Of a stretch of DNA of 64,000 bases, positions 44,501-47,495 are shown in pieces (position 1 is the first letter of the stretch; the number at the start of each line of letters is the position of its first letter). The position numbers and the translations under genes are program-made. The stretch is from assembly GCA_028534125.1 (NCBI GenBank), contig CM052833.1, positions 5,208,001 to 5,272,000 on the forward strand, read 5' to 3'. This stretch comes from Lama glama (taxonomy: Eukaryota). Under the pieces are notes generated by a model. It did no database searches, was not told the DNA's origin, and saw nothing but the letters and a program-made list of their open reading frames with translations.

Positions 44501-45567
44501 GGTGTTCATTGAACTTCTTGCATCTGAATTTACAGTTTTCACCAAAGTTGGAAATAGTGCAGCCATTATATCACTCCACTCATCTCTAACATGAGTTAAC
44601 AATGTTTTCCACCAGCTTCAATTACATCCTTCCATGCATTTGTAAAAAAGTTAGACTCATTTGTCAAATTCATGCATTCTGCTTTGTCATGCTATAGTGT
44701 CATGTATACATCCTTACAGTATCATATCAAATATTTTTCACTGTCTTAAAAAAATAGCCTGTGCCTCATATATTCAAACTCTCTTCCCCAGCCTCACGGA
44801 ACCACTAGCAAACACTGATCAGTTTATAGTCTCTATAGTTTTGCCTTTTCTAGAATGTCATGTAATGGGACTCATACAGTATATACCCTATTTAGACTGG
44901 CTTTTTTTACTTAGCAATATGCATATCAGTTTCATCTATCACTTTTATTGGTTTGATAACTCATTCCTTTCTACTGCTGAATAAATATTCCATTATATGG
45001 ATGTACCATAGTTTGTTTATCCAGTCATCAATCAAAGGGCATCTTGGTTGCTTCTGTTTTTTAGTAATTATGAATGCTGCCATAAACACTTAGTATTTGT
45101 GTGGACATAGGTTCTCAACACATTTGGGTAAATACCTAGGAATGCGACTGATAGATCATACAGTAAAACAACTATTTCACTTTGTAAGAAACTGCCAAAC
45201 TGTCTTCCAAAGTGGCTGTAAGATTTTTTATTCCCTCCAGCAATGAATGAGAGTTATTTGTTGCTCTAAATCCTCACCAGCTGTGAGTTTTTTTCTGGAT
45301 TTTAGACATTCGAATAAGTATACCTTCTTACATATCAGAAATAGAGTGTTATCTCATTGTTGTTTAAATTTGCATTCCTCTAATTACAAATGAATGAGCA
45401 TCTTTTCTTATGCTTATTTGCTCTCTGCATACTTTGGTAAATTGTGCATATCTTTTGCCCAATTTTTGTGGATTATTGTTGAGTTTTCAGGGTTCTTTGT
45501 ATATTTGGGATACAAGTCCTTTACCAGATATGATTTGCAGATATCTTCTCCTGGTCTGTGGTGTGTC
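41530..45567 (-). mobile_element. Mosaic of old antisense L1M fragments (3' ends and ORF2/ORF1 pieces)
   Basis: Typical reverse L1M 3'-end text (ttgaggtataatt, ttccaaagtggctgta, caccatttgttgaa-like motifs) in several nested segments. Confidence 0.85.
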
Positions 45568-45684
45568 CTTTTTTTTTTTCCAATTCATTCAGCAAATATT
45601 TATTACATGCTTATTATATACCAAACATTCTGCCAGTACATTTTTGTTTCATTTAGTTTTCCTGTCTCTAGTTTGTCCCCTGCC

Positions 45685-46655
45685 AATTAATTCAAAAGTG
45701 CTATCAGAGCAAAGGAAACCACAAACAAAACAAAAAAACCAACCTACGTACTGGGAGAAAATATTTGCAAACGATGTGACTGACAAGGGCTTAAGTTCCA
45801 GAATATACAAACAGCTCATACAACTCAATAACAAAAAAAGAAACCACCCGATTGAAAAGTGGGCAGAAGACCTAAAGAGACATTTCTACAATGAAGACAT
45901 TCAGATGGCCAAAAGGCAGATGAAAAGATTCTCAATATTGCTAGTTATCGGAGAAGTGCAAAACAAAACTTCAACGAGGTATCATCTCACACTGATCAGA
46001 ATGACCATCATTAAAAAGTCCACAAGCAATAAATGTTGGAAAGGGTGTGGAGAAAAGAGAACCCTCCTACACTGTTGCTGGGAATGTAATATGGTGCAGC
46101 CACTATAGAAAACAGTATAAAGTTTTCTTAAAAAAAACAAAAATACAATTACCATATGATCCAGCAATCTCATGCCTAGGTATATATCTGGAGAAAACTC
46201 CAATTTGAAAAGATACATGCACCCCAATGTTTATAGCAGCACTATTTACAATAGCCACGATGTGGAAGCAACCTAAACATCCATTGAGAGATGAATGGAT
46301 AAAGATATGGTATGTATATACAATGGAATAATACTAAGCAACAAAAAGTGAAATAATACCATTTGCAGCAACATGGATAGACTTAGAGATTATCACACTA
46401 AGTGAAATCAGTCAGACAGAGAAAGACAAATATTATATAATATCACTTACATGTGGAATCTAAAAAAATGGTACAAATGAACTTATTTACAAAACAGAAA
46501 CAGACTCACAGACATAGAAAACAAACTTATAGTCACCATAGGTGGAAGTGGGGAAGGAGGGATAAATTGGGAGTTTGGAATTGGCAGATACTCTGTACAG
46601 AATAAATAAACAACAAGGTCCTACTGGGAACTATACTCAATGGCTTGTGGTAACG
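45685..46655 (+). mobile_element. Younger (cetartiodactyl/camelid-type) L1 fragment: ORF2 C-terminus + 3' UTR, 3'-truncated
   Basis: Translates [18 protein letters not shown]...[25 protein letters not shown] (L1 ORF2p C-terminal region), followed by a typical 3' UTR. It stops before its own poly(A) signal and tail. Confidence 0.92.
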
Positions 46656-46976
46656 TTTTCCTGGAATGTCTTGCACTCACTTTCCCATGTTTAATTCTAG
46701 ACCAACCTTTTAAATGCTAGCTCAAATTTCAAGAAGAATTTTCCTTTTTCTGAAAAGTCTATGAACTTGGTTTCACAAATCTTTTTGGCACTTACTATAA
46801 TGCTTGCTTGATTTTGTTATTTGTAATTCATGCCTTATATACCCTTATATGATCTTGAGGAGTTTTAGACTCCTTGAAGGCAAAAGTGATGCTCTAAATA
46901 GCTTTTTCTTTTCCATAGTAGCTAACATAGTATCATATCTATAGAAAACAAACGATAGGCATTTGTTGAATGAACA
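46655..46976 (+). mobile_element. L2 3' fragment inside the composite insertion
   Basis: cctggaatgtc ... gactccttgaaggcaaa ... catttgttgaatgaa. Confidence 0.65.
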
Positions 46977-47128
46977 ACTCTGTTTTCCTACGACCTTGCC
47001 CTGAAGGGTCCTATTCAATAGGATCCATGAAGGTATACTAGGTAAGTAATAATCTTTCTCCACTTTGTATTTAGTTCATTTTGTTTGCACCTTAGTTTTG
47101 ATGATTTCACACAGGAGTCACTAACTCA

Positions 47129-47495
47129 TGTGGTGTGTCTTCTTATTCTCATAATAAAGTATTTCTCAGGGCAAAATTTTAAATTTTTAATTAAATTCAA
47201 ACCAATTTTTCTTTCATGGATTGTAGGGTGTGTGTGTGGGGGGGTGTTAGCTAAAAATGCACTGCCAAATTCAAGGTCACATAGATTATCTCTTATTTTT
47301 TTCCTGAAGTTTTACAGTATTGCATTTTACATTTCAATCCATGATCCATTTTGAGTTAACTTTTGTGAAAGGTGTAAGATCTATGTGTAGGTTCATTTTT
47401 TTTCATGTGGATGCCCAATTGTTCCAGCATCATTTGTTGAAAAGACTATTCCTTGTCCATTGAAATATCTTTGAAACTTTGTCAAAGATCATCCG
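47129..47495 (-). mobile_element. Continuation of the L1MC-like element interrupted at 45567
   Basis: Antisense ORF2 sequence (gatccattttgagttaac, ccagcatcatttgttgaaaagact) picks up where 45567 stops. Confidence 0.8.

Follow-up and report, generated by a model that had tools for sequence, protein, structure and literature searches.

Background

How does a mixture of L1 and L2-like fragments, lying on both strands, come to be inserted as a single block in the middle of an older L1? This is the question raised by a 1.55 kb insert on contig C18 of Lama glama, within a stretch of 64,000 nucleotides that we refer to as the window. The initial annotation of the window interpreted the insert as a 3' transduction by the L1 inside it, with the 5' part inverted by twin priming at a junction near 45685. 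Is the mixed orientation the result of such an inversion? Or, was the same mixture already present in an RNA that was copied as it stood?

L1-mediated processed pseudogenes, or retrocopies, are defined by Hancks and Kazazian 2016 (PMC4859970), and elsewhere retrocopies are defined from mRNA (PMC5470649). A comparison of the insert with its donor locus leads us to conclude, with a probability of roughly 0.88, that it is an L1-made, 5'-truncated processed retrocopy of a spliced, probably non-coding RNA.

Results

Anatomy of the insert

The anatomy that had been described can be read directly in the window. The insert is flanked by target-site duplication copies with a spacing of 1572, TGTGGTGTGTCCTTTT at 45557-45572 and TGTGGTGTGTCTTCTT at 47129-47144, which match at 14/16 positions and share an 11-nt perfect core; only 3 of 1,500 random window pairs of equal spacing reach a 16-mer match of at least 14. 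The T11 run at 45569-45579 shares the last 4 nt of the left repeat. It lies 19 nt from TTTATT at 45599-45604, which is AATAAA on the minus strand and is also present at the donor. The tail is untemplated, the longest T run near the donor cleavage site being 3, and the empty site, TTCTT/A, is of the endonuclease type that resembles TTTT/AA. With target-site duplication, tail and nick motif all present, the claim of an L1-mediated insertion is upheld. Polyadenylation at a signal in an L2 end had been claimed as well; the signal and its distance from the tail agree with this, and the L2 identity was judged only by the look of the sequence. We take both this end and the region of exon 3 to be L2 on that basis.

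The older antisense L1 is indeed split by the insert, since three other L1 copies align in one piece over the joined flanks. In a separate-flank test of this host L1, 33 nt were found against 39 expected, for one paralogue only. The features are listed below in window coordinates, with the exons and junctions as predicted from the donor comparison.

44990-47480, minus strand: older host L1, interrupted by the insert; approximate extent, with further pieces to the left
45557-45572, no strand: left copy of the target-site duplication, overlapping the tail by its last 4 nt
45569-45579, minus strand: poly(A) tail remnant (T11 on the plus strand), untemplated
45580-46654, minus strand: predicted terminal exon; donor C23:53547034-53548296 minus a later 152-nt SINE
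45599-45604, minus strand: AATAAA in what we take to be an L2-like 3' end
45693-45707, no strand: 5' target-site copy of the inner L1; its partner follows the L1 tail at the donor and falls within intron A
45708-46654, plus strand: inner L1, sister of the donor L1 and carried as antisense cargo; covers the ORF2 end and most of the 3' UTR
46654-46655, minus strand: predicted splice junction A; 537 donor bases missing, acceptor in antisense L1 3' UTR
46655-47010, minus strand: predicted exon 3, presumably L2-like; donor C23:53548834-53549187, 90% identical
47010-47011, minus strand: predicted splice junction B; 138 donor bases missing
47011-47110, minus strand: predicted exon 2; donor C23:53549326-53549415, 10 extra bases in the copy
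47111-47128, minus strand: probable end of an upstream exon and point of 5' truncation; 16/18 to C23:53584153-53584136, then GT
47129-47144, no strand: right target-site duplication copy; nick site TTCTT/A

A single collinear donor

A genome search found one donor for the insert, C23:53547034-53549415, and the proposal that the sequence was carried in from a traceable locus is borne out for both of its unique segments. The 479-nt right unique part has two genome candidates, the window itself and contig C23. The 111-nt left unique part matches the C23 locus over its whole length, together with five short matches to the repeat end. Both match C23 on the plus strand and in the order of the window, with an L1 between them. 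The alignment of insert and donor spans 45583 to 47110 with 1,319/1,494 columns identical, inner L1 included, and runs straight through the supposed junction at 45685. A search of 230 kb around the donor for the unique parts in inverted orientation gave no match, nor is there any match between the flanks of the insert outside its repeats and the flanks of the donor.

Twin priming and duplication at the DNA level are therefore out, as the donor is collinear, an inverted match is lacking and the flanks are not shared. The single locus does not show the order that the transduction model had predicted, an L1 followed by an inverted segment. The model drew on repeats lying on two strands within the insert and on an L1 without a poly(A) signal, but one donor strand accounts for the whole arrangement, and a second, inverted donor is opposed by the two genome candidates of the 479-nt part, window and C23. 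A plain retrocopy entered later by an L1 had been named as the alternative; it was right about a collinear, uninverted donor, but the L1 already lies between the two segments there.

The inner L1 as cargo

The donor holds the L1 as a complete, 5'-truncated insertion. It ends in a tail of its own and lies between 15-nt target-site duplication copies, one of which can still be seen in the window (45693-45707). The inner L1, at about 45708-46654, lacks its own 3' end, as had been claimed, and the missing end falls within intron A of the donor. It has no poly(A) signal because this part sits in the removed GT-AG segment. Since the inner L1 is oriented against the poly(A) tail, it is cargo. It cannot be the source promoter, because it is resident at the donor, 5'-truncated, provided with a tail and duplication of its own, and read antisense. 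These features, together with the collinear donor, leave the transduction by the inner L1 with a probability close to nil.

The kinship of the two L1 copies was examined in a tree of 31 family copies, in which the bootstrap is rough and not fully settled. The window and donor copies form one clade (99/98), with a shared branch of 0.024 and own branches of 0.089 and 0.097. They have 23 derived sites in common, against 10 or fewer with any of the 29 other copies. The shared 5' end and the tree rule out a separate insertion or a converted copy.

The L1 part of the insert differs from the donor at 124/915 positions, as against 50/566 in the unique parts. CpG decay was considered as the cause of this higher divergence and rejected: 10 CpG-type columns were flagged, and the remaining columns differ at 127/878. 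A (GT)n microsatellite (L011:4908-4960) grew in the donor L1 after copying and is absent from the window copy.

A SINE found at the donor only

The donor has a 152-nt segment that the window lacks. This segment carries repeats of 16 nt, its head is tRNA-like, and it is matched 10 more times within 230 kb. It was tried as a further intron, and 0/33 registers read GT-AG. With its own repeats, its tRNA head and no GT-AG register, it is read as a later SINE insertion into the donor. We take it to resemble the camelid SINE vic-1. The latter is an existing SINE family (PMC3531059).

This SINE, at L011:4150-4317 (C23:53547150-53547317), went into the target-site copy on the 5' side of the donor L1. 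The order of events is therefore L1, then retrocopy, then SINE. The bases there are TTGG in the donor and TCAG in the window, which fits one ancestral CpG decaying both ways.

Missing segments and splice joints

Two donor segments within the alignment are absent from the copy, and both can be read as introns on the minus strand. Segment A, of 537 nt (C23:53548297-53548833), reads aag|GTAATG ... ttcactacAG, and segment B, of 138 nt (C23:53549188-53549325), reads tag|GTAAGA ... tttgacAG. Both have a GTAA donor, and pyrimidines make up 13 of 17 positions in A and 14 of 17 in B. In random deletions of the same lengths, with five registers allowed (200,000 draws each), GT..AG appeared in 1.7% and the full pattern in 0.03-0.04%. 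A donor copy that is collinear apart from GT-AG-bounded segments, together with a poly(A) tail and a target-site duplication, is what leads to the retrocopy reading.

Could the two segments have been lost by chance deletions after a duplication of the DNA? At junction A five registers, that of GT-AG among them, share the best fit. At junction B the GT-AG register has 2 mismatches in 16 and the neighboring one, a base away, has 1; this slightly favors deletion, as do the other small indels present. However, two deletions would be needed, each with a 0.03-0.04% chance of showing the pattern, and neither the untemplated tail, the target-site duplication, the nick motif nor the dissimilar flanks are expected of a DNA duplication, which makes this route barely credible. 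Ten bases at window 47019-47028, 8 nt from junction B, are present in the copy and missing at the donor.

The acceptor of segment A lies in the donor L1. An AG behind a pyrimidine run is found at the same place in 23 of the 27 covered copies of the L1 family (29 examined). The predicted acceptor is a trait of the family, built into the antisense 3' UTR.

The third joint, C, is the weakest of the three. The donor match ends at 47110, and exon 2 starts exactly behind ctcccAG. The last 18 nt of the insert have a single match with no more than 3 mismatches in 213,585 upstream bases; it lies 34.7 kb upstream and is followed by GT, which implies a length of 34,720 nt for intron C. Among shuffled 18-mers, 4/600 reach 2 mismatches and 0/600 do so with GT; among real 18-mers the counts are 31/600 and 3/600. 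Three registers tie at this junction. The donor site, ttt|GTTATA, is weak, and a better one, taa|GTGAGC, lies 7 nt further on; its use would need a later loss of 7 nt in the copy. We regard the removal of parental introns as firm at A and B and as probable at C, judging from these sequence comparisons. The parent RNA thus probably had at least three exons, and probably four.

The parent RNA

The parent RNA would have been transcribed from the minus strand, away from ATRNL1. The only CpG island in 213 kb upstream, at 53610-53612.5 kb on C23, lies 27 kb beyond the upstream exon and carries ATRNL1 exon 1 on the plus strand. Because the only upstream CpG island holds ATRNL1 exon 1 on the opposite strand, a divergent ATRNL1 transcript is the simplest source, and the RNA likely started at this island. 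We presume from human synteny that LINC02626 is a possible link to the parent RNA. ATRNL1, TRUB1 and LINC02626 all occur in PMC10556398.

Some other features of the region were noted. The repeat interval C23:53551111-53551492, 1.7 kb upstream of exon 2, is a possible alternative RNA start; we assume it to be an MLT1-type LTR on the minus strand. A weaker CpG-rich island, to which no gene is assigned, follows the donor poly(A) site at a distance of 9 kb downstream (C23:53537001-53538500; L013:4000-5500). Within intron C, a stretch of about 1 kb (C23:53549900-53550900; L011:6900-7900) looks unique and has, by eye, the appearance of a conserved element or a 3' UTR; its two longest minus-strand frames, near L011 7530-7930, have no Pfam match.

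Did this RNA encode a protein? Exon 3 contains no frame over 29 codons, and the longest ATG frame has 78 codons in the copy and 141 in donor exon 4, where it is mostly antisense L1. The copied exons, as far as the sequence tells, hold no convincing frame. A Pfam scan of the 150 longest of 360 minus-strand frames (at least 40 aa) from the donor to ATRNL1 gave 0/150 matches; short coding exons are liable to escape such a scan. A run search turned up 12 RNA or RNA-guessed runs, each with a small share (0.05-0.17) of the donor stretch; as run-level shares these are evidence neither way. The insert could instead derive from a protein-coding mRNA isoform, of which it would hold the 3' end, or from a three-exon RNA with a degraded or untemplated 5' end, in which case intron C is unreal. 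The weak donor site at C is in line with this, as is a 10/18 match of the last 18 nt to the collinear donor, and upstream coding exons are only partly excluded. Against it are the 16/18 match with GT at one site in 213 kb, the break exactly at an acceptor, the opposite direction of the nearest identified gene and the lack of Pfam matches among the 150 frames. We consider it improbable, and the spliced, probably non-coding parent remains preferred.

Nearly all L1 matches within ATRNL1 (C23:53615000-53760000) are antisense to the gene; an antisense excess of intronic L1 is the usual bias. Such minus-strand copies, present in ATRNL1 intron sequence from 53618 kb on, bear on another possible origin, an orphan 3' transduction. 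A full-length minus-strand L1 upstream would have been read through and the RNA spliced, with 5' truncation then removing all L1 sequence of the source, which may since have been lost or never fixed. Orphan transductions are known (PMC4859970). However, the 62 kb from the donor to the ATRNL1 promoter contain no sizeable minus-strand L1, only a 160-190 nt fragment and an old A-rich stretch, and a source inside ATRNL1 would need more than 70 kb of read-through across the CpG-island promoter. This origin is unlikely in comparison with the copying of a host transcript. A search for other copies with the upstream exon gave one genome candidate, the donor itself.

Age

The K2P distance between copy and donor is 0.130 over 1,481 columns, 0.07-0.10 outside the L1 and 0.15 inside it. 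A mammalian rate near 2.2e-9 gives an age of about 22-30 My. At 5e-9 per year (2.5e-8 per generation, five years; PMC8605555) the age is about 10-13 My. The retrocopy is thus estimated to be roughly 10-30 My old. The shared L1 branch sets a maximum for the time that passed from the arrival of the L1 to its copying, about one fifth of the path.

Discussion

The insert has the hallmarks of a processed retrocopy: a target-site duplication, an untemplated tail behind a poly(A) signal, an endonuclease-type site, loss of GT-AG introns and a collinear parent with unshared flanks. There is no sense L1 in the copied RNA, nor a sizeable one upstream at the donor in the 62 kb to the ATRNL1 promoter, and it is such an L1 that marks a 3' transduction. 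The 5' part is not inverted relative to the donor, as it would be after twin priming.

The following course of events would account for it. An L1 first came to lie at the donor, as can be read there; it sits between two L2-like relics at 27-64 kb upstream of ATRNL1. A minus-strand RNA polymerase II transcript, likely begun at the ATRNL1 CpG island as a putative divergent transcript, then would have crossed the region and, from the missing segments, been spliced at three points. One acceptor would have been supplied by the antisense 3' UTR of the donor L1, with splicing removing the L1 tail. Cleavage and polyadenylation presumably followed about 19 nt behind the AATAAA in the L2-like end. From the hallmarks, L1 ORF2p acting in trans would have nicked TTCTT/A in the older L1 on C18 and, once primed on the tail, would have copied as far as 18 nt into the upstream exon. 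The tRNA-derived SINE entered the donor later, and the donor only, as its presence there, its absence from the copy and its own repeats show. The copy itself carries no promoter and is likely inert.

The mechanism is known; it is the parent, seemingly non-coding and built from transposons, that seems unusual. Like processed pseudogenes (PMC4859970), the insert has lost introns and has a target-site duplication, a poly(A) tail, an endonuclease-type site and a 5' truncation. Unlike the usual ones, its parent appears non-coding and probably consists largely of L1 and L2-like transposon debris. Like L1 3' and orphan transductions (PMC4859970), it consists of unique DNA that L1 brought from a donor that can be traced, yet in contrast to these and to twin-priming 5' inversions it has a single tail, is spliced at its joints and shows no inversion and no sense-strand L1 in the RNA. 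SpIREs (spliced integrated retrotransposed elements, PMC5860796) likewise used a splice site within L1 before retrotransposition, but they derive from sense L1 RNA, whereas here the L1 is antisense cargo of a host transcript.

That retrocopies are records of past transcript isoforms is an established idea (PMC4772013, citing Shemesh et al. 2006). This copy similarly keeps the exon joints and poly(A) site of an old RNA, though the record is of an unannotated intergenic RNA and not of coding-gene isoforms. One polymorphic event has been annotated as a lncRNA (10.1101/2020.06.07.139212), and lncRNAs overlapping pseudogenes, a separate matter, are treated in PMC4805607. A literature search, with most subscription journals outside its scope, turned up neither a paper about this locus nor a catalogue of spliced-lncRNA retrocopies.

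Conclusions

Mixed repeat orientations within an insert need not mean inversion, and a plausible misreading is hereby corrected. L1 is seen to move fragments of other transposons as spliced cargo, and it is because L1 carried it in this way that an ancient L2 piece lies inside a younger L1. The copy would preserve four exon ends of an old RNA along with its poly(A) site; no coding gene was detected in the region that it came from. Since the parent is seemingly non-coding and L1/L2-built, protein-based retrocopy screens would miss such a copy and repeat masking would mostly hide it. If the RNA is confirmed, the copy would date the use of a transposon-supplied splice site and suggest a DNA-only screen for old non-coding transcripts.

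A further reading is tentative, and we lean somewhat against it: the insert may be a dated fossil of a germline lncRNA in the making, a divergent ATRNL1 transcript that, before more than about a fifth of the residence of the inner L1 had passed (shared branch 0.024, as against 0.09 since), adopted an L1-family antisense acceptor together with a poly(A) signal of L2 type. If this is true, copies of non-coding RNAs hidden by repeat masking may amount to a neglected genome-wide archive of lncRNA age, exon structure and turnover, extinct lncRNAs included.
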